From the NCBI GenBank assembly GCA_965226495.1, contig OZ245365.1, positions 1,184,001 to 1,248,000 on the forward strand: a DNA stretch of 64,000 nucleotides, read 5' to 3'. Source of the stretch: Candidatus Marinacidobacterales bacterium. Its GTDB lineage: Bacteria; Acidobacteriota; Vicinamibacteria; Marinacidobacterales; DATDRI01. A program made the position numbers and the translations under genes. Below the pieces are notes generated by a model. That model had not been told where the DNA came from. It saw only the letters and a list, made by a program, of their open reading frames with translations, and did no database searches. This document shows, one piece after another, positions 1,370 to 26,197 of this stretch (position 1 is its first letter; each line of letters opens with the position of its first letter).

Positions 1370-3481
1370 ATGAATATCAGAGTCAAAGGCAAGGTAAACA
1401 ATAAAGGGCAGTTCGCCGGCGTCCTGGGGGCGCTCGGGGTGGCGCGGAAGACCGGCTGTCTCGTGGTGACTTCAGAGGACGTCGAGAGAAAACTCTACTT
1501 CGAGGGCGGAGCTATTGTCGCCGCGTCGTCGAGCGCCGCGGACGAATCGTTCGGACACGTTTTGGTCGAGCGGGCGATCATCAAACAGCACAATCTCGCC
1601 AACGCCAAGGAACTCGGTACCAACCAGGACTCGCTGCTCGGAAGCCGATTGGTGGAAGTGGGTGCCTTGTCCGAGGACGATGTTCGGAATGCTGTTCGAT
1701 TGAAAGTCCGGGACACTCTCACCGAAATACTTGCCGTCCCCGGCGGTCAGTACGAGTTCACTGACGATCGACTGCCAACGAAGGACAAGGTGCCGGTGTT
1801 TCTCGATCCGGGCGAGTTGATGGGGGGAGCGAAGGTTCTCCAAGAGGGACAGCCTTCGACGACTGAACCCTCCGAACATCCGAGCGAGCCGGCGAGCGCG
1901 ATGCCGGCGAGCGCGATGCCAGAAGAGCCCGAACCGACGCTGTCCGGCTCTGGCTCCGAACCGACGCTGTCCGGCTCTGGCTCCGAACCGACGCTGTCCG
2001 ACTCCGGCTCCGAACCGACGCTGTCCGGCTCCGACTCCGAATCGACGCTTGTCGACCGACGCGACCCCGATGTCTCCGATCGTCGTGACCCGGAGGTTCC
2101 CGATCGTCGGGACATCGCTAGCACCAAGGATCTGAGCGAGGGGTCTCCCGACCGGCGCGATCCAGCGACATCGGACCGACGCGATTCTTTGGAGCCCGAT
2201 CGTCGCGACCCGAAGGTGAACAAAATGCTCGAGATGTTTGCCGACTTCCACCTCGGAGGCGATTCGTCTGCTTCTTCTGATTCGGCTGCCTCGGAGCCGA
2301 CGTTGAGCGGGACCGAGTCGACCCTGACGGGTGGGACGGCCTATGAAGAGTCGGAGCCCACGATCCGTGAAACAACACCGTCCTACACTGAGCCTGCGCC
2401 GACACTCGTCAACGCGGAGCCAGAGCCAAGTGAGCCGGAGTCGAAGCCGAGTACCGGGAGCTATGCGAAGCCGGCGACAGGCAGTTATGCGAGACCAACT
2501 ACTGGGAGCTATCCCAGACCGACTACCGGAAGTCATGCCCGCCCCCATACCGGCGTACACGACAAACCGAAAAGCAACACGCCTCTCATTGGTGCCGCGG
2601 CGGTCGCAGCTGTCGTGATTCTCGGAGGGGGTTCCTGGTTGTTTCTCGGTGGTGATTCGGAAGAGCCGGCGACGGGCACGCGCCTCGAAGTGCCTACGAT
2701 AGAGACCGCGCCGACTCAGCCTCAGACCCAGCCCCAGTCCCAATCAACGTCCCTACCGAAAAAGACCGCTGAAGCACCGGCACCGAAACAACGGCAGGCG
2801 CCGCCCAAGAGGGAAAAAGCGCCGGCGACCACTGCTCCCAAGCCAGCTCCGTCAACACCCGTCAAGAAGCAAGAGGCGCCGGTCAAGAAACAAGAGGCTC
2901 CAACTGCTACGCGGCAGGCTTCGGTGAAGACAGCGCAAAACGTCGTTCCGAATCCTCCACCTGTAACGGGGAGCGCGGGGTCGACTCCACCACCCGCGGC
3001 AAAGACGGCGCCGGCCGCAACCACGACTACGAAGACTGCTAGCGAGTCGGCTAACCCACCGGCCGCGGAAGCGAAAGCGGAACCGAGCGAAGCGGGGTGG
3101 GACAACGCTGTTTTCGCGCCCACGAGGGCTACCGTTGTGACGAGCAAGCCGGCGGCTCCCGAAGCTAACGCCGTGAAAGTGGGGGATCTGGTCCAGCCTG
3201 GCCCAGAGGTCATCGACCCGGTTCTCATCGAGCATCCCAAGCTGAAGTTTCCGAAGGCCGCCAAGAAGCAGAAAATTCAGGAAATGGTGGTTCGCCTTCG
3301 CGTTCTCGTCGACGAGAACGGCAAAGTACTGGAAGCGAAACTAGACAAACCAGTCGGAAACGGCTTCGACGAATCAGCCGTCCAAGTAGCCCGCCAAGCG
3401 CGATTCATCCCGGCGACCCACGGTAGAGTCCAGGTCAAAATGTGGACTGAGCTTCCACTTCATTACCTCCAAAAGAAATAG
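1370..3481 (+). CDS. TonB-family protein with N-terminal DUF4388/PATAN-like domain, repeat-rich linker, one TM helix and TonB C-terminal domain
   Basis: N-term KTGCLVV..RKLYFEGGAIVAASS; TM segment LIGAAAVAAVVILGGGSWLFL; Pro/Lys/Ala-rich spacer; C-term FPKAAKKQ..VRLRVLVDENGKV..FDESAVQVARQARFIPA. Confidence 0.8.
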   Translation: MNIRVKGKVNNKGQFAGVLGALGVARKTGCLVVTSEDVERKLYFEGGAIVAASSSAADESFGHVLVERAIIKQHNLANAKELGTNQDSLLGSRLVEVGALSEDDVRNAVRLKVRDTLTEILAVPGGQYEFTDDRLPTKDKVPVFLDPGELMGGAKVLQEGQPSTTEPSEHPSEPASAMPASAMPEEPEPTLSGSGSEPTLSGSGSEPTLSDSGSEPTLSGSDSESTLVDRRDPDVSDRRDPEVPDRRDIASTKDLSEGSPDRRDPATSDRRDSLEPDRRDPKVNKMLEMFADFHLGGDSSASSDSAASEPTLSGTESTLTGGTAYEESEPTIRETTPSYTEPAPTLVNAEPEPSEPESKPSTGSYAKPATGSYARPTTGSYPRPTTGSHARPHTGVHDKPKSNTPLIGAAAVAAVVILGGGSWLFLGGDSEEPATGTRLEVPTIETAPTQPQTQPQSQSTSLPKKTAEAPAPKQRQAPPKREKAPATTAPKPAPSTPVKKQEAPVKKQEAPTATRQASVKTAQNVVPNPPPVTGSAGSTPPPAAKTAPAATTTTKTASESANPPAAEAKAEPSEAGWDNAVFAPTRATVVTSKPAAPEANAVKVGDLVQPGPEVIDPVLIEHPKLKFPKAAKKQKIQEMVVRLRVLVDENGKVLEAKLDKPVGNGFDESAVQVARQARFIPATHGRVQVKMWTELPLHYLQKK
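1931..2212 (+). repeat. Intragenic tandem repeats: 27-bp EPTLSGSGS x4, then DRRD(P) x6
   Basis: gaaccgacgctgtccggctctggctcc units at 1931-2038; DRRD motifs visible in the translation. Confidence 0.9.
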
Positions 3482-3642
3482 CCCGCTCTCTGTTTGCTCT
3501 GCAATCATGCCGCAAGTAGAATCCCGACACAGTCGGTTTACGGGGAAAAAAGTGCGAATCGTGAACAAGCTGCTCGTAAGGTAGTTTCTCGGGAAGTGTG
3601 ATCTTGAATGCTAAGCGCGAATGTTTTGTTCCGGAGGTTTCG

Positions 3643-21623: not shown

Positions 21624-22144
21624 TCCGCGTCGTGGTGACCGGCTCCGAATGCACCGGCAAGACGAAGCTCGCCGAGGCGATTGCCACACACTACGAGACC
21701 GTCTGGGTCCCGGAGTTCGCTCGCCAGTTCGTGATCGACAAAGGCGCCGCTCCCGTGTACGAAGATGTCGAGACCATCGCCCGCGGCCAAATCGCCCTAG
21801 AGGACCACAAAGCCGGCGAGGCATCCAGCCTACTTCTTCAAGATACCGATCTACTCAGCACCATCGTCTATAGCCGCCACTACTTCGGTGATTGCCCCCA
21901 CTGGATCGAGGAGGCTTTCGAGAAACGAGCCGCCGGCCTATACCTTCTAGCCGGCATTGACGTTCCCTGGGTACCCGAAGGGGAGCAACGCGACCGCGGA
22001 GACCGGCGCGAAGAGATGCACGAGCTATTCCGGAGCGCCCTGGTCGATCGCCGCCTGACCTATGCCGAGATAGGTGGGGCAAGGGGTGAGCGATTGGAAG
22101 CGGCGGTGTCGCGGATCGACCAGCTTCTTAGTCGAGGCCGCTGA
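21620..22144 (+). CDS. NadR-type ribosylnicotinamide-kinase-like P-loop protein
   Basis: TGSECTGKTKL, VPEFAR, QDTD and DVPWV..QRD motifs; ATGA overlap with pnuC. Confidence 0.85.
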   Translation: MIRVVVTGSECTGKTKLAEAIATHYETVWVPEFARQFVIDKGAAPVYEDVETIARGQIALEDHKAGEASSLLLQDTDLLSTIVYSRHYFGDCPHWIEEAFEKRAAGLYLLAGIDVPWVPEGEQRDRGDRREEMHELFRSALVDRRLTYAEIGGARGERLEAAVSRIDQLLSRGR

Positions 22145-22279
22145 ATACTTGCTAGGGCCGGACCGGGTCGCTATGCGGTCACTGAGTCCCGCCCAGCGAT
22201 GCTTGGTGTGGTCGAGGCAAAGCTGTCCGCTTAACGGCAGAGGAGTTGCGGGTGTCTCCCGATTACTCCCCAAGAACCC

Positions 22280-22789
22280 CTAACGCACGTCGTCAACTGT
22301 TAGGCGAGGGGCTTTGTCTCCCTCCGGGGCGTGGAAAACTCCTGACACGCTCACCTCAGTGTCGTTGTCCAGCTTCTCAAGCTCGTCCGAGGCCTTATCA
22401 CCCTCCAGGAGGATTAGCATATCCAGACTGGACTCATACCCGACTCGGAGCGCTAGGGCATTCTCCACCCTCTCCAATGTGCCCTTAACGTCAACCTTCA
22501 CTTTGCCCGCTGAGAAGCCAGCGGCCTCGACGGCCTTGGCAATCTGTGCCGGATCGAAAGAGTGGTCCGGTTCGGCAAGGATCACGGTCTCGCCCGTGTC
22601 GAGACTCATCACTTCAGCGTCCTGAACGCCATCCAGGCGTTCCAGAGCCGTCTCGGCCCCGTGTGCTCACAACCCTCACGTCATGCCCTGAATCCAGGTT
22701 CGGGCTTCTTGGACTTGGGCAAAGGCTACTCCCGACAATGCGTGGCAGAGAATAATTGTACTTAGTGATAGGAGCGTTCTCACTTTCAT
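22280..22789 (-). CDS. Secreted HMA-domain heavy-metal-binding protein with a UxxU motif (two in-frame TGA read as Sec), 169 aa
   Basis: GAGAGGA RBS; MKVRTLLSLSTIILCHALSGVAFA signal peptide; IQGMT-TGA-GL-TGA-AHGAETALERLDGV..IAKAVEAAGF, in frame with the listed 22280-22612 ORF. Confidence 0.85.
22624..22661 (-). promoter_or_regulatory. Two tandem SECIS-like hairpins
   Basis: CGGGGCC-GAGAC-GGCUCUG (22661-22643) and GAACGCC-UGGAU-GGCGUUC (22642-22624). Confidence 0.6.
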
Positions 22790-22810
22790 GTCGTTAGGTC
22801 CTCTCTTTTG

Positions 22811-23662
22811 CTAGTGAAGGTATCGAAACCCTGTTACGAACACCCAGTCTTTATTCAACCGATGACCGTTCAACTCCTGGTACACGGGGAGTTGGACAGA
22901 CAACTCCAATATCAAGTTGCGCCGCAAGAAGACTTCAACTCCCGGCGAGACAAAAACGGACTCGCCACCCGTTGCAAGGATCTCCGTCCCGTCACGGTTC
23001 GACCGGCTCTCAATGAAGGAGTTGACTTCCAACACGACGAATAGGTCGTTTCGCTCCGGGTACCGGAGGAGGCGATACATGACGGATGCGTCCAGCTGCA
23101 GAAGGTTCCCCGCCTTGAACCCGCTCTCTTTCGTCGTTGCTGTCCACTGGAAATCGGTGTTGACGAACCAACTAGTCGTTGCGTGGGTAAAAATAAGCCC
23201 CTGAAGAAGGTCCGTCGCTCCGGTCGAGAAACCCTCTTGGCCCCAAGGTACCTTCACTCCCAAGAAACCCGCCAGCCGAGAAAAACCACCAGGCCGGTTT
23301 TTCGCATAGAGCCCGTCGTACTGCACGAAAAACATTGGGTCCGCCAAGCTCGTGTCTCTTGGTTGGCCGCCCGGTGAGCCGCTGACTACGGGTACCATAG
23401 CGACCCACATGAGGTGGCGTGGTAGACCGAAGACGAACGTGTTTTCCCAGGCCATCACCGTGTGGTCTCGGTCACGCTCGGGGCGACCGTCCGTGACATC
23501 TAGCGACGGAGGAGATCGTTTCAGGACTCGCCAATCAGACCGATAGAGAAAGTTGCGGACGAACAAAGTTCTAGCCCCGGGGGAGTTGATTTGCCCAGAT
23601 AGGGGCAAGTGCTGAAGCAACAAAACGGACGCCAGGACAAATCGGAGACAGATTAGTCGCAC
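22811..23662 (-). CDS. Putative outer-membrane beta-barrel (MetA/phenol-degradation transporter-like)
   Basis: Signal peptide, alternating beta-strand pattern, GVKVPWG, TGGESVFVSPGV and a C-terminal GFRYLH. Confidence 0.6.
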   Translation of the reverse strand: MRLICLRFVLASVLLLQHLPLSGQINSPGARTLFVRNFLYRSDWRVLKRSPPSLDVTDGRPERDRDHTVMAWENTFVFGLPRHLMWVAMVPVVSGSPGGQPRDTSLADPMFFVQYDGLYAKNRPGGFSRLAGFLGVKVPWGQEGFSTGATDLLQGLIFTHATTSWFVNTDFQWTATTKESGFKAGNLLQLDASVMYRLLRYPERNDLFVVLEVNSFIESRSNRDGTEILATGGESVFVSPGVEVFLRRNLILELSVQLPVYQELNGHRLNKDWVFVTGFRYLH

Positions 23663-23787
23663 GGCGTAAGTCTAGTTACCCGGCCAGAGGTTACCCAAAC
23701 AACACCTACCCTCAGGGTTTCGCAACTCGCAAGCCGAGCGCCCAGCTTCCACGTGTGCATGGATGCGCGATTCGGCAGCGTCGGCGT

Positions 23788-23835
23788 CACACCGAAGCCG
23801 GCGGCGACGGCTCCGAAACCGCTCCATTTGGACAT
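23788..23835 (-). pseudogene. Possible 5' remnant of a MerT-like membrane transporter
   Basis: Strong AGGAG RBS right after the merR stop; MSKWSGFGAVAAGFG resembles the MerT first TM helix, but similarity ends before the expected CC pair. Confidence 0.35.
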
Positions 23836-23844
23836 GACATCTCC

Positions 23845-24463
23845 TCAGGCTTTCTCGTCGGATACGTCGGCAATCACCGGGCATCTCGAACCCTGGTCAA
23901 TCGCCTGAGCGCATTGGTCCCGGTAGTTAGACATTTGTCGATGGAAGCGCTTCATTTCTTTACCCTGCTGGGCGATCTCGACTATTTTCTTGTCGAGGAT
24001 GCCCAACACGCGACGGCAGCTCCCGGGGTTGTCCGGCCGGAGGCCCAGGAGTACCGAGATCTCGTCGAGAGCGAAACCAAAACCCTGCGCGCGTTTGATG
24101 AAACTCAGACGCTGCTCAGCTTTGGGCCCATAAAGGCGGAGAGCCTGATCTGGAACGCCGCTTCATTTCTTTACCCTGCTGGGCGATCTCGACTATTTTC
24201 TTGTCGAGGATGCCCAACACGCGAAGCTCCCGGGGTTGTCCGGCCGGAGGCCCAGGAGTACCGAGATCTCGTCCGAAACCAAAACCCTGCGCGCGTTTGA
24301 TGAAACTCAGACGCTGCTCAGCTTTGGGCCCATAAAGGCGGTAGCCTGATCTGGAACGCCGGCTGGGTTTGAGAATGCCGCGCCGCTCGTAGTACCGGAG
24401 GGTTTCGCGGTTCACACCGGCCCGCAGAGCTAATTCACCGATGAGAAGCGAGTCGTTCTTCAT
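23845..24463 (-). CDS. merR: Heavy-metal-responsive MerR-family regulator, disrupted by an internal ~200-bp tandem duplication
   Basis: IGELA..TLRYYERRG..GYRLY HTH. The reconstructed 138-aa protein has Cys82, Cys117 and Cys127 and ends RCPVIADVSDEKA*. Confidence 0.8.
23948..24361. repeat. Imperfect tandem duplication inside merR
   Basis: 23948-24158 matches 24159-24361; the right copy lacks 4-bp and 5-bp stretches, and the left copy has a 1-bp indel. Confidence 0.95.
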
Positions 24464-24481
24464 TCGATTGCTCTTGGCGCC

Positions 24482-24513
24482 ATTGTAAACCTTTGACTCG
24501 GGTACAGGGTCAA
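24482..24513 (-). promoter_or_regulatory. MerR-type long-spacer promoter/operator
   Basis: TTGACC-20 bp-TACAAT with an imperfect dyad ACCCTGTAC-CCGA-GTCAAAGGT. Confidence 0.8.
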
Positions 24514-24594
24514 GCCCTTTTTTACAACAATCGAGGCTTGCTAGCTATTTCTGGGGGGCGAATGTAAACGGTTCAAATTGGAGGGTTTGTCGCT

Positions 24595-24615
24595 TGGTGC
24601 CGAAAAGGGAGATTC
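24595..24615 (-). repeat. att-like copy 4 of the tRNA-Leu 3' end (most diverged)
   Basis: TGGTGCCGAAAAGGGAGATTC versus tRNA TGGTGCCGAAGGGGGGATTC. Confidence 0.75.
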
Positions 24616-24685
24616 GGCAAAGCTCCTCTGTGCTTTCCCGAGCTGGCAATCCACTCAAGAATTCCGTGAGTACCGGAACCGTAGG

Positions 24686-26197
24686 CTAGGCGCCGCTGGG
24701 TACCTGCAATTCCGGCATCGGTGCAGTGTGAAACAAGCGCCGGCAGGGCTTCGCTATCCACCTGGCCACCGTCGTCGCCCGGTTCACACGGGCACTGTCC
24801 GTCGCAATCCCTGTGCTGGCGTACATTTGCCGGTAGAGCTTGGAAAGCAAGACGAAGGCGAGACGTGCGCGCAACGTTGGAGTACATCGAGAGCGCTTCC
24901 AGACTGGGCCCAAGCTATAGAAACGATCCCAGACCGACTGCGTGCGCGACCTGATCTCCTCGGCCGACAGCACTGGATGGTCGCTGTAGATTTTCGGCCG
25001 AAGATTTTGAGGAATCAACCAGTGGCGGGTCAATGGGATACCCCCAATGCGCGTCGGGTCATCCTTCATCGAAGCTTCCCAATTGTTGAAATCTACCGTC
25101 CCCGGGAACGGGGTCATCATCACGAACTGCGCAAAAGTCAGATCGGCCTCCTGCGCGAGGGCCGCGGTAGCGTCGAAGGTCTCCGCGCGGTCCGTGGGCA
25201 GACCAAAGATGAACGAGCCCAAGACGTGCACTCCGTGCTTACGAAACTTGCGAAGCTGCAGCACTAAGTCTGCGCCCGAGGTGTTGAAATTCTTGTAGAC
25301 CGCTTTCAGCCCTTCGGCAGTAACAGACTCGACTCCGACGAGAGCTCCTTTGATGTTGGCTTTGCGCATGGCATCCAGAAAATCGGGATCGTCGGCGACT
25401 TCCATCGTGATCTGAGTAAAGAACACCATATTGGCGGGCAACTTGGCCATTTGCGCCATCAACTGGAACCGATCTTCGCGTATTGATTTGAGCTCTTGGA
25501 GCCGGTGCACATCGTTGCGACTTTCGGCAAGCCTCAAGTCCTCTAACGTAACCGGGTAGAAATTGTCGTCCGCCAGGGCGATAAATCGAAATCCGAGCCG
25601 TCGGAGCTCGACAATTTCTTCGATGACGGCGTCGGACGGGCGCTGGCGGGGTTTTTGGCCGTCCGTGCGCCAGACGGAGCAAAAAGAGCAATGCTTGGGG
25701 CATCCGCGCACCGTTTGAACGGAGGCCCACATATAGCTGTTGGGAGGAATCAGTTCCCAACGGGCGGGCTTGAACTGGTCGGCCTCGATCTTTCCCGCGT
25801 CGTACAATCTTTCGGGCTTTCCTTTCGCGCAGTCGGCCAGGACGGTGGCCCAAACGACGTCCCCGTCGCCCTTGACGACGCCGTTTGCGCCGCCCAAATC
25901 GAATGCTTCCTCGGGGTAAAGCGTGGCGTGAATGCCTCCATAGATCACATGGGCCCCTCGCTCCTGCGCCATGCGGCCGACCTCGTACCCGCGCAGCGCG
26001 TTGCCGGTATGGATGCTGATGCCGACCACATCGCCGTGCTGAATGTCGGAGGGGTCGATTTGCTCTAGCGTTTCGTCGACAATCACCGGGTCTCCGTACT
26101 CTCGGGGGGTCGCGCCGGCAAGTACGAAGAGCCATCGGGGGGTTATAACGCCTATTCCAAAGGAGATATGGCTGGGGTTGACTAGATGCACTCTCAT
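24686..26197 (-). CDS. B12-binding-domain radical SAM protein
   Basis: VIYGGIHAT, RGCPKHCSFC (CxxxCxxC), DDNF, GVES and TPFPGT motifs. Confidence 0.92.
   Translation of the reverse strand: MRVHLVNPSHISFGIGVITPRWLFVLAGATPREYGDPVIVDETLEQIDPSDIQHGDVVGISIHTGNALRGYEVGRMAQERGAHVIYGGIHATLYPEEAFDLGGANGVVKGDGDVVWATVLADCAKGKPERLYDAGKIEADQFKPARWELIPPNSYMWASVQTVRGCPKHCSFCSVWRTDGQKPRQRPSDAVIEEIVELRRLGFRFIALADDNFYPVTLEDLRLAESRNDVHRLQELKSIREDRFQLMAQMAKLPANMVFFTQITMEVADDPDFLDAMRKANIKGALVGVESVTAEGLKAVYKNFNTSGADLVLQLRKFRKHGVHVLGSFIFGLPTDRAETFDATAALAQEADLTFAQFVMMTPFPGTVDFNNWEASMKDDPTRIGGIPLTRHWLIPQNLRPKIYSDHPVLSAEEIRSRTQSVWDRFYSLGPVWKRSRCTPTLRARLAFVLLSKLYRQMYASTGIATDSARVNRATTVARWIAKPCRRLFHTAPMPELQVPSGA

Follow-up and report, generated by a model that had tools for sequence, protein, structure and literature searches.

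A putative exported selenoprotein with a Sec-Gly-Leu-Sec HMA metal site and an OB domain in Candidatus Marinacidobacterales

The predicted selenoprotein gene and its product

Analysis of a 64,000-nucleotide stretch of a Candidatus Marinacidobacterales genome (GenBank assembly GCA_965226495.1, contig OZ245365.1, positions 1,184,001 to 1,248,000; this whole stretch is referred to here as the window) revealed on its minus strand a frame of 169 codons with two internal TGA codons, which its homologues and the RNA structure downstream of the two codons mark as very probably a genuine selenoprotein gene. When TGA is read as selenocysteine (Sec, U), the frame runs without any further stop through a product of 169 residues, MKVRTLLSLSTIILCHALSGVAFA-QVQEARTWIQGMT-U-GL-U-AHGAETALERLDGV..., in which the boundary between MKVRTLLSLSTIILCHALSGVAFA and QVQEARTWIQGMT is a putative cleavage site. 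The open reading frame (ORF) listing contains only a 110-residue tail of this product, at 22280-22612. A first-pass annotation, made from the letters of the DNA, had picked out the longer frame, and its account of the ribosome-binding site, the ATG at 22789, the signal peptide, the coordinates of both TGA codons and the 110-residue tail proved correct on the minus strand. The features of the gene and its product are as follows:

22280..22789, minus strand: complete predicted selenoprotein coding sequence, 169 codons plus TAG, with Sec at codons 38 and 41 (TGA=U translation, Pfam HMA match, RNA-library contig)
22799..22807, minus strand: Shine-Dalgarno-like AAGAGAGGA, 8-18 nucleotides (nt) ahead of the ATG with a 9-nt gap (read from sequence)
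22789-22787, minus strand: start ATG (read from sequence)
22718..22789, minus strand: signal peptide, residues 1-24, with a putative cleavage-type site between VAFA and Q; disordered in the model
22514..22717, minus strand: HMA domain, residues 25-92, ferredoxin-like beta-alpha-beta-beta-alpha-beta (Pfam, structure model, Foldseek)
22676..22678, minus strand: first UGA (Sec38), at the first Cys position of GMTCxxC; TGA in UxxC and UxxU homologues, Cys in CxxC and CxxU homologues
22667..22669, minus strand: second UGA (Sec41), at the second Cys position; Cys in UxxC homologues and in the catalogued protein P0004
22283..22513, minus strand: C-terminal OB-fold domain, residues 93-169 (structure model, VIA-align)
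22282-22280, minus strand: stop TAG (read from sequence)

The two TGA codons fall where the metal ligands of an HMA domain would be expected. With U read as C, the Pfam HMA family PF00403 matches residues 32-92 with 44.2 bits against a gathering score of 24.8, and U38 and U41 coincide with both Cys positions of the HMA metal motif, as the first-pass annotation had placed them; the motif of the window protein is U-G-L-U, that is, UxxU in an HMA-like domain. Chance can be set aside as the origin of this coincidence because homologues 25-41% identical to the window protein carry TGA or Cys in the same two columns, with conservation on either side, which upholds the earlier argument that two independent nonsense changes at just these codons are unlikely. 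An alternative genetic code in which TGA specifies Trp or Gly was likewise ruled out, since several family genes normally terminate in TGA and Cys stands at both sites in homologues. The genes that end in TGA include L036, L032, L033 and L030/L031 among others, with Sec inside the frame and an ordinary stop at its end. The catalogued family protein P0093 (167 residues) reads IDGME-W-HL-W-ALG and is apparently a UxxU gene translated with TGA as Trp.

AlphaFold2 (AF2) modelling of the whole protein from a 48-row family alignment gave a predicted local distance difference test score (pLDDT) of 89 and a predicted template modelling score (pTM) of 0.81, with a pLDDT of 54-55 in the signal peptide. 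A comparable hydrophobic leader is present in all family members read. The modelled strands (E) and helices (H) are E25-34, H39-50, E55-62, E67-72, H81-89 and E93 onward, U38 and U41 lie at the loop and first turn of the first helix, and residues 93-168 form a beta-barrel with one helix. Foldseek matched the first domain to HMA7, CopZ, ATP7B and MerP (TMt 0.79-0.87) and the second, weakly, to OB proteins. The C-terminal domain has no Pfam family match; modelled alone it reached a pLDDT of 88.4, and in VIA-align wide it aligned with SSB, PriB, PotA (potempin A), the NlpE C-domain and YgiW over 63-77 residues (Z 8.9-6.3), nearly all 50 rows being OB proteins. At the level of the fold, the order of strands and helix in the AF2 models agrees with the OB arrangement, in which five strands form the barrel and a helix connects the third to the fourth. 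On these models the C-terminal half is an OB fold, and the guarded suggestion of a possibly OB-like domain in the first-pass annotation can be put more firmly. The family alignment shows no conserved Cys, His or Met in the OB domain that might point to another metal site.

Both TGA codons were compared with independent assemblies by placing contigs of four public runs on 22000-23700. Two runs of unrecorded (DNA-type) kind from two studies, X6 and X7, cover every bin, and two metatranscriptomes, X18 and X19, cover the gene. No difference occurs at either TGA among the 40 differences listed of 47 in these contigs, and one 548-nt contig from the RNA library X18 spans 22252-22808, the whole gene. 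Nine nucleotides at 22433-22441, encoding Gly-Tyr-Glu in the OB domain, are absent from the contigs of all four runs, which makes Gly-Tyr-Glu an in-frame insertion of this assembly alone; P0003, the closest protein in the catalogue, lacks them too.

Selenocysteine and cysteine forms of the family

The homologues exhibit every combination of Sec and Cys at the two motif positions. Of the seven close relatives matched in catalogues, six are tails of 106-119 residues; P0004 (127 residues) begins M-C-AHGAE and has Cys at the second site, so that the motif of its gene would be U-G-L-C. When stops were read through in 60 related genomes, UxxC (GMD-U-VV-C), UxxU (GL[VA]-U-MF-U) and CxxC (GLA-C-PF-C) forms were obtained, all of which have a signal peptide and share the HMA and C-terminal domains. 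Of 401 phylum-wide genomes searched with a profile, 159 matched at E<=1e-8, many of the matches being ordinary HMA domains, and the best 29 loci of this sample comprise eight UxxU, 11 UxxC and 10 CxxC genes (Sec forms, 19/29). A further 20 regions were read, 14 of them chosen for containing two TGA codons, a choice that biases this sample towards UxxU; family genes were found in 17, namely 12 UxxU, one UxxC, two CxxU (GYL-C-GN-U) and two CxxC, all included in the counts by form. Two regions hold plain HMA genes ending in TGA, and the additional CxxC gene L094 was also used. With another UxxU gene contributed by one metagenome contig, the genes read number 24 UxxU, 14 UxxC, two CxxU and 14 CxxC, and the four states share the same two columns. 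A locus search with the single protein returned only the record of genome G003 from genome contigs and no match from metagenome contigs, and a later metagenome scan with alignment A2 returned two loci, one of which ends before the motif.

Two variants of the architecture were observed among these genes. In L064 (genome G455, 1456-3219) the UxxU gene is a single frame of 588 codons in which HMA-OB continues into a fused C-terminal region of some 400 residues. The two CxxU genes, L091 and L092 (G442 and G258), have Sec at the second position only and a longer C-terminal region.

Sec and Cys forms were placed on a maximum-likelihood tree of 42 rows, from which the six tail proteins P0003-P0008 were left out; L034, L036, L047, L051, L052, L059, L068, L069 and L075 were entered from separate readings of their frames or left out of alignment A5 and the tree. 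The window gene belongs, with good support (96/92), to a clade whose eight genes are UxxU without exception, five changes are required for the three forms on the tree, and the CxxC genes of two genomes without detected selB nest within the UxxC clade. The gene selB is above cut-off in 37/39 genomes with a Sec form vs 9/13 genomes with CxxC only, and three of the four CxxC-only genomes in which selB was not found are 99% complete. As judged from the sequences, this distribution of Sec and Cys is the classical pattern of a true selenoprotein family.

The genome of the window (G000; 6.34 Mb, one contig) encodes the machinery that Sec incorporation needs, which answers the call of the first-pass annotation for a search for the Sec genes. 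Profile searches of the genome returned selA (570 bits), selB (378 bits) and selD (333 bits), each above its cut-off, and a tRNA-Sec scoring 70.9 bits vs a gathering score of 47, at a locus that ARAGORN also calls tRNA-SeC with anticodon tca. Three genes elsewhere in the genome carry in-frame TGA codons of their own: fdhA, for the formate dehydrogenase alpha subunit (1342 bits), a second molybdoenzyme gene and selD, in which U stands in an SAGU-ASK motif (G000:C1:1800365-1803361 and 1767197-1767667; G000:C1:5697778-5698710). With this machinery and these TGA-bearing genes, Sec decoding is therefore in use in the organism.

Gene callers truncate nearly all Sec forms, and therefore the catalogues hold hypothetical proteins of 70-140 residues in their place. 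A profile of the OB domain, searched against 1.84 billion cluster representatives, matched 518 proteins at E<=0.001. The best 149 of the 518 include 122 short calls starting inside the HMA domain after the motif, nine of them between U and C; the rest of the best 149 are 10 full-length CxxC proteins, 11 long, unrelated-looking proteins and six others. The nearest clusters in the ESM Atlas are likewise 'hypothetical proteins' of 110-121 residues, mostly from Acidobacteriota. By these catalogue counts the family is, at the level of predicted proteins, large, mostly Sec-bearing and mostly mis-annotated.

Tandem hairpins downstream of the UGA codons

Two hairpins follow the second UGA at fixed positions in every UxxU gene in the register of the window, hairpin 1 being shifted by one base in five genes. 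In the window they are:

22643..22661, minus strand: hairpin 1, CGGGGCCG-aga-CGGCUCUG; structure kept, sequence free, loop variable (RNA folding and alignment A4)
22625..22641, minus strand: hairpin 2, AACGCC-UGGAU-GGCGUU; stem invariant, loop G-rich, resembling the fdhA selenocysteine insertion sequence (SECIS) apex of the same genome

The two differ in what is conserved. The stem of hairpin 1 occurs as GGGGCC/GGCCCU, GGUGUU/AACACC, GGGAUC/GAUCCC and AGCCUC/GGGGCU, and in alignment A4 four of its six pairs change on both sides with 94.4% of cells paired; hairpin 2 is paired in 100% of cells in 18 sequences, with the stem ACGCC/GGCGU and the loop (U/A)-G-(G/U)-N-(U/A/G). For both hairpins together, 97.2% of cells are paired in the 18 UxxU genes of one register, and sliding the 3' partner by 1-3 columns lowers this to 31-46%. 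Because the counted sequences are also those from which the structure was drawn, the paired percentage is inflated; the double changes are unaffected. In the same 18 genes five pairs and 20 cells change on both sides, and the covariation score was reached by none of 500 shuffles. A distant UxxU pair, L035 and L036, retains the UGGAU-loop hairpin through the compensatory change ACGUC/GACGU. The changes of a minor strain seen in X6 and X7, at 22658, 22652, 22640 and 22622, all lie near the UGA codons, and the first three keep the hairpin pairing.

Folding in excess of what the protein requires is found with the double-Sec motif. Against synonymous-codon shuffles in which the protein is held fixed, the 45-nt stretch of the window has -24.8 vs a mean of -14.4 kcal/mol (0/300 shuffles reach it), and the UxxU genes have a mean z of -2.24, with 18/24 at p<=0.05. 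In the Cys-containing forms the excess is weak or absent (CxxC, z -0.32, 2/14; UxxC, z -0.20, 0/14). Codon choice in the stem of hairpin 2 follows the same division: Arg+13 is CGC and Gly+16 is GGC in 22/22 UxxU genes and both are mixed in the Cys forms, the same Gly being encoded by GGC, GGT, GGA and GGG in UxxC and CxxC genes. The UxxC genes have a short GUG-loop hairpin 21-22 nt after the UGA, as judged by eye only, and no consistent hairpin was seen in the two CxxU genes. An Rfam search of 22200-22900 at E<=10 gave four chance-level matches and no SECIS family.

The single-Sec genes of the same genome provide a reference for these structures. The SECIS apex is GCC-AGUCU-GGC in fdhA and GUC-GGUCU-GGC in the second molybdoenzyme gene; common to both is (A/G)GUCU closed by C-G pairs, with the loop G 21-22 nt after the UGA. 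We propose that SelB with Sec-tRNA(Sec) would read both UGA codons, which are 9 nt apart, under the guidance of the two tandem hairpins. Hairpin 2, with its fdhA-apex-like loop, would be the SelB site, and hairpin 1 may act as a covarying structural spacer between the UGA codons and hairpin 2. The signal would then be bipartite, a freely covarying spacer hairpin followed by an invariant SelB-type hairpin about 13-22 nt further downstream than in the single-Sec genes of the same genome.

Neighbouring genes, proposed function and known systems

Two genes upstream of the selenoprotein gene bear on its possible function:

22811..23662, minus strand: outer-membrane beta-barrel gene (Phenol_MetA_deg-like), 283 residues, with its stop 21 nt before the selenoprotein ATG (PF13557)
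23845..24463, minus strand: MerR-family metal-sensor gene (MerR_1 and MerR HTH), interrupted by a tandem duplication of about 205 nt

The barrel gene, recognised by Pfam PF13557 with 26.9 bits vs a cut-off of 22, is probably in one operon with the selenoprotein gene. The pairing recurs in the family: in 18/26 relatives' loci with enough flank a barrel-like ORF with a terminal aromatic residue immediately precedes the family gene on its strand, and in one further locus the barrel lies downstream, which brings the loci with a barrel gene beside the family gene to 19/26. In phmmer searches the barrels of seven relatives match that of the window directly, and all 19 fall in one cluster with it. 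When the OB domain (alignment A6, HMA excluded) and the window's barrel (alignment A7) were modelled together, the score was 0.01 vs a mark of 0.32, which speaks neither for nor against binding. The MerR-family gene contains imperfect tandem repeats at 23948-24139 and 24159-24341, with three blocks of 100% identity at spacings of 202, 207 and 211 nt; its N-terminal part scores for ZntR and MerR, and the best model for the C-terminal part is TIGR02051 MerR, with 59.8 bits and below cut-off. Without the duplication, which may be real or an artefact of long-read assembly, it would be a single intact MerR/ZntR-like frame with three Cys. A promoter and terminator scan of 22100-24700 was uninformative, yielding one promoter-like site inside a coding region and no terminator after the gene. 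In five members of the clade of the window (L046, L053, L057, L061 and L074) NHL-repeat beta-propeller genes adjoin the UxxU gene; none does so at the window.

Taken together, the Sec machinery, the Sec and Cys homologues, the hairpins and the contigs support the reading of the gene as encoding a UxxU selenoprotein; on all three points that the first-pass annotation had named as able to refute it, the sequenced codons, the Sec machinery and the homologues, the outcome was in its favour. We consider it likely that the product is an exported selenoprotein with a Sec-Gly-Leu-Sec HMA metal site and an OB domain, decoded as proposed above and with the following metal and partner roles. The protein would be exported by the Sec pathway to give a mature form of about 145 residues. 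In the periplasm its two selenolates would bind a soft metal ion, for example Cu(I), Hg(II), Cd(II), Zn(II) or Ag(I), and pass it to or from the outer-membrane barrel encoded upstream. The two genes would constitute a module of channel and periplasmic metal binder, possibly under the control of the MerR-type metal sensor. A more ambitious proposal, that the protein is the type member of a large, mostly unannotated HMA-OB selenoprotein family in which a bipartite recoding signal serves a diselenolate that delivers a soft metal to a dedicated channel of the outer membrane or receives it from there, is put forward tentatively; we doubt that all of its parts will hold together.

Several observations weigh against this interpretation. 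From the two UGA codons to the loop of hairpin 2 the distances are 44 and 35 nt vs 21-22 nt in fdhA and the second molybdoenzyme gene, so the geometry is unusual; hairpin 1 has the customary spacing (24-26 nt from the first UGA) but lacks a conserved loop. No selB was found at E<=1e-60 in two genomes with a Sec form, G177 (84% complete) and G399 (100% complete). The nearest full-length relative, in G003 (L044/L029, ~3001-3483; 82% identity), has TGA at the first site, TAA at the second and a deletion of 1 nt immediately behind the ATG, in spite of the presence of selB in G003; from its sequence this copy appears to be either decayed or mis-assembled, and the gene is therefore dispensable or error-prone in at least one lineage. 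At E<=0.001 Pfam recognises no barrels but those of the window and of L050, the locus with the barrel downstream, and 0/18 of the upstream copies; the MerR-family gene is disrupted in this assembly; and the evidence from the public runs consists of contigs, which lose rare variants, with 40/47 differences listed.

The alternative that survives best accepts a real selenoprotein but takes U-x-x-U for a redox centre, a diselenide/diselenol serving for example as a periplasmic reductant or oxidant, and not for a metal ligand. Most UxxC, CxxU and UxxU selenoproteins of bacteria catalogued in the tables of two reviews are redox proteins (PMC9312934, PMC13188914), and MerP has been crystallised in an oxidised form, according to the title of structure 1osd. 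The fold and the motif of the window protein are nevertheless those of HMA metal binders and not thioredoxin-like, its best NCBIfam matches are all metal proteins, and a MerR-family sensor lies in the neighbourhood, which together make a redox role unlikely.

A second alternative holds that only one UGA is efficiently read as Sec, the other being read by another tRNA or mostly terminating translation, so that no true diselenolate would form. Two UGA codons 9 nt apart cannot both stand at the fdhA-type distance from a hairpin, and relatives of the UxxC and CxxU forms manage with a single Sec. Against this, UGA occupies both positions in 22/23 UxxU rows of the window's register (the exception being G003, with TAA at the second) and no form other than UxxU has the two-hairpin arrangement; we regard metal binding through a true double-Sec site as far better founded, and decoding of a single UGA as quite improbable. 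Least credible, with hardly any chance of being correct, is a pseudogene in which two nonsense mutations have struck an HMA gene and at most the 110-residue tail (22280-22612) is made: gene callers list only tails for it and for six of seven close homologues (106-119 residues) and the G003 copy carries a TAA and a frameshift, yet TGA stands at exactly both columns in 24 UxxU genes of several clades, whose members in the tree are 19-41% identical to the window protein, the signal peptide and first beta-strand upstream of the UGA codons remain conserved, the hairpins covary, and a tail starting inside the HMA fold would be without signal peptide and first strand.

If the reading as a double-Sec metal protein is correct, its consequences reach beyond the window. 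The family is widespread in the phylum, and its recognition would repair many annotations and extend the acidobacterial selenoproteome. The occurrence of CxxC, UxxC, CxxU and UxxU on one scaffold constitutes a natural experiment on the contribution of each selenium to a metal site, the UxxU-specific hairpin pair offers a concrete and testable case of bacterial decoding of two close UGA codons as Sec, and the conserved pairing with a barrel points to a route for soft metals across the outer membrane that has been undescribed so far.

Sec in an HMA metal site, the double form included, is already known. The first-pass annotation had left the novelty of the motif to a search, and UxxU in an HMA domain proved not to be new: NCBIfam holds the curated equivalog family NF041115 'UxxU_metal_bind', and UxxU HMA metal-binding selenoproteins are listed in the table text of two reviews (PMC13188914, PMC9312934), whose same tables also name a MerT selenoprotein and a P-type ATPase of the UxxC form, with a single Sec in its HMA domain. 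The Global Ocean Sampling (GOS) selenoproteome survey has a table entry for a selenoprotein called 'Mercuric transport protein MerP' (PMC2398784). The text of the 2026 review contains neither 'PF00403' nor 'Acidobacteri', and we found no description of a secreted HMA-OB family in the literature, although the supplements of the selenoproteome surveys, which were not covered, may list members.

None of the 15 family members compared, the window protein included, reaches any NCBIfam cut-off. NF041115 is the best NCBIfam match of the window protein and shares with it an HMA-type domain with Sec at both CxxC positions; the window protein, however, scores 44.7 bits vs a cut-off of 95 and 14 relatives score <=49.3, and the model covers 74 positions and a single domain, in contrast to 169 residues with a signal peptide, an OB domain and a linked barrel gene. 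MerP (TIGR02052) is likewise a secreted HMA protein with its metal site in the beta1-alpha1 loop, matched by Foldseek as 1osd and 1afi, but it lacks the OB domain, and the window protein scores 33.7 bits vs its cut-off of 92.55; neither merT nor merA was present among the five neighbouring ORFs scanned, the rest of the genome not having been searched for them. CopZ, HMA7 and ATP7B have the same fold and the same motif position; unlike the window protein they are cytoplasmic, without signal peptide or OB domain, and the CopZ models NF047957, NF033795 and NF033794 give it 44.3, 34.9 and 32.3 bits vs cut-offs of 85-95. The MerT/CopZ fusion-like heavy metal transport selenoprotein NF045683 shares an HMA-like module and the connection to heavy metals (a weak match of 24.8 bits vs a cut-off of 375) but is a membrane-protein fusion of another architecture. 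By its sequence, the window protein belongs to a separate secreted HMA-OB family, distinct from NF041115, and what sets it apart is the secreted HMA-OB architecture, together with a conserved partner gene for an outer-membrane protein and a two-hairpin signal that is confined to the double-Sec forms.

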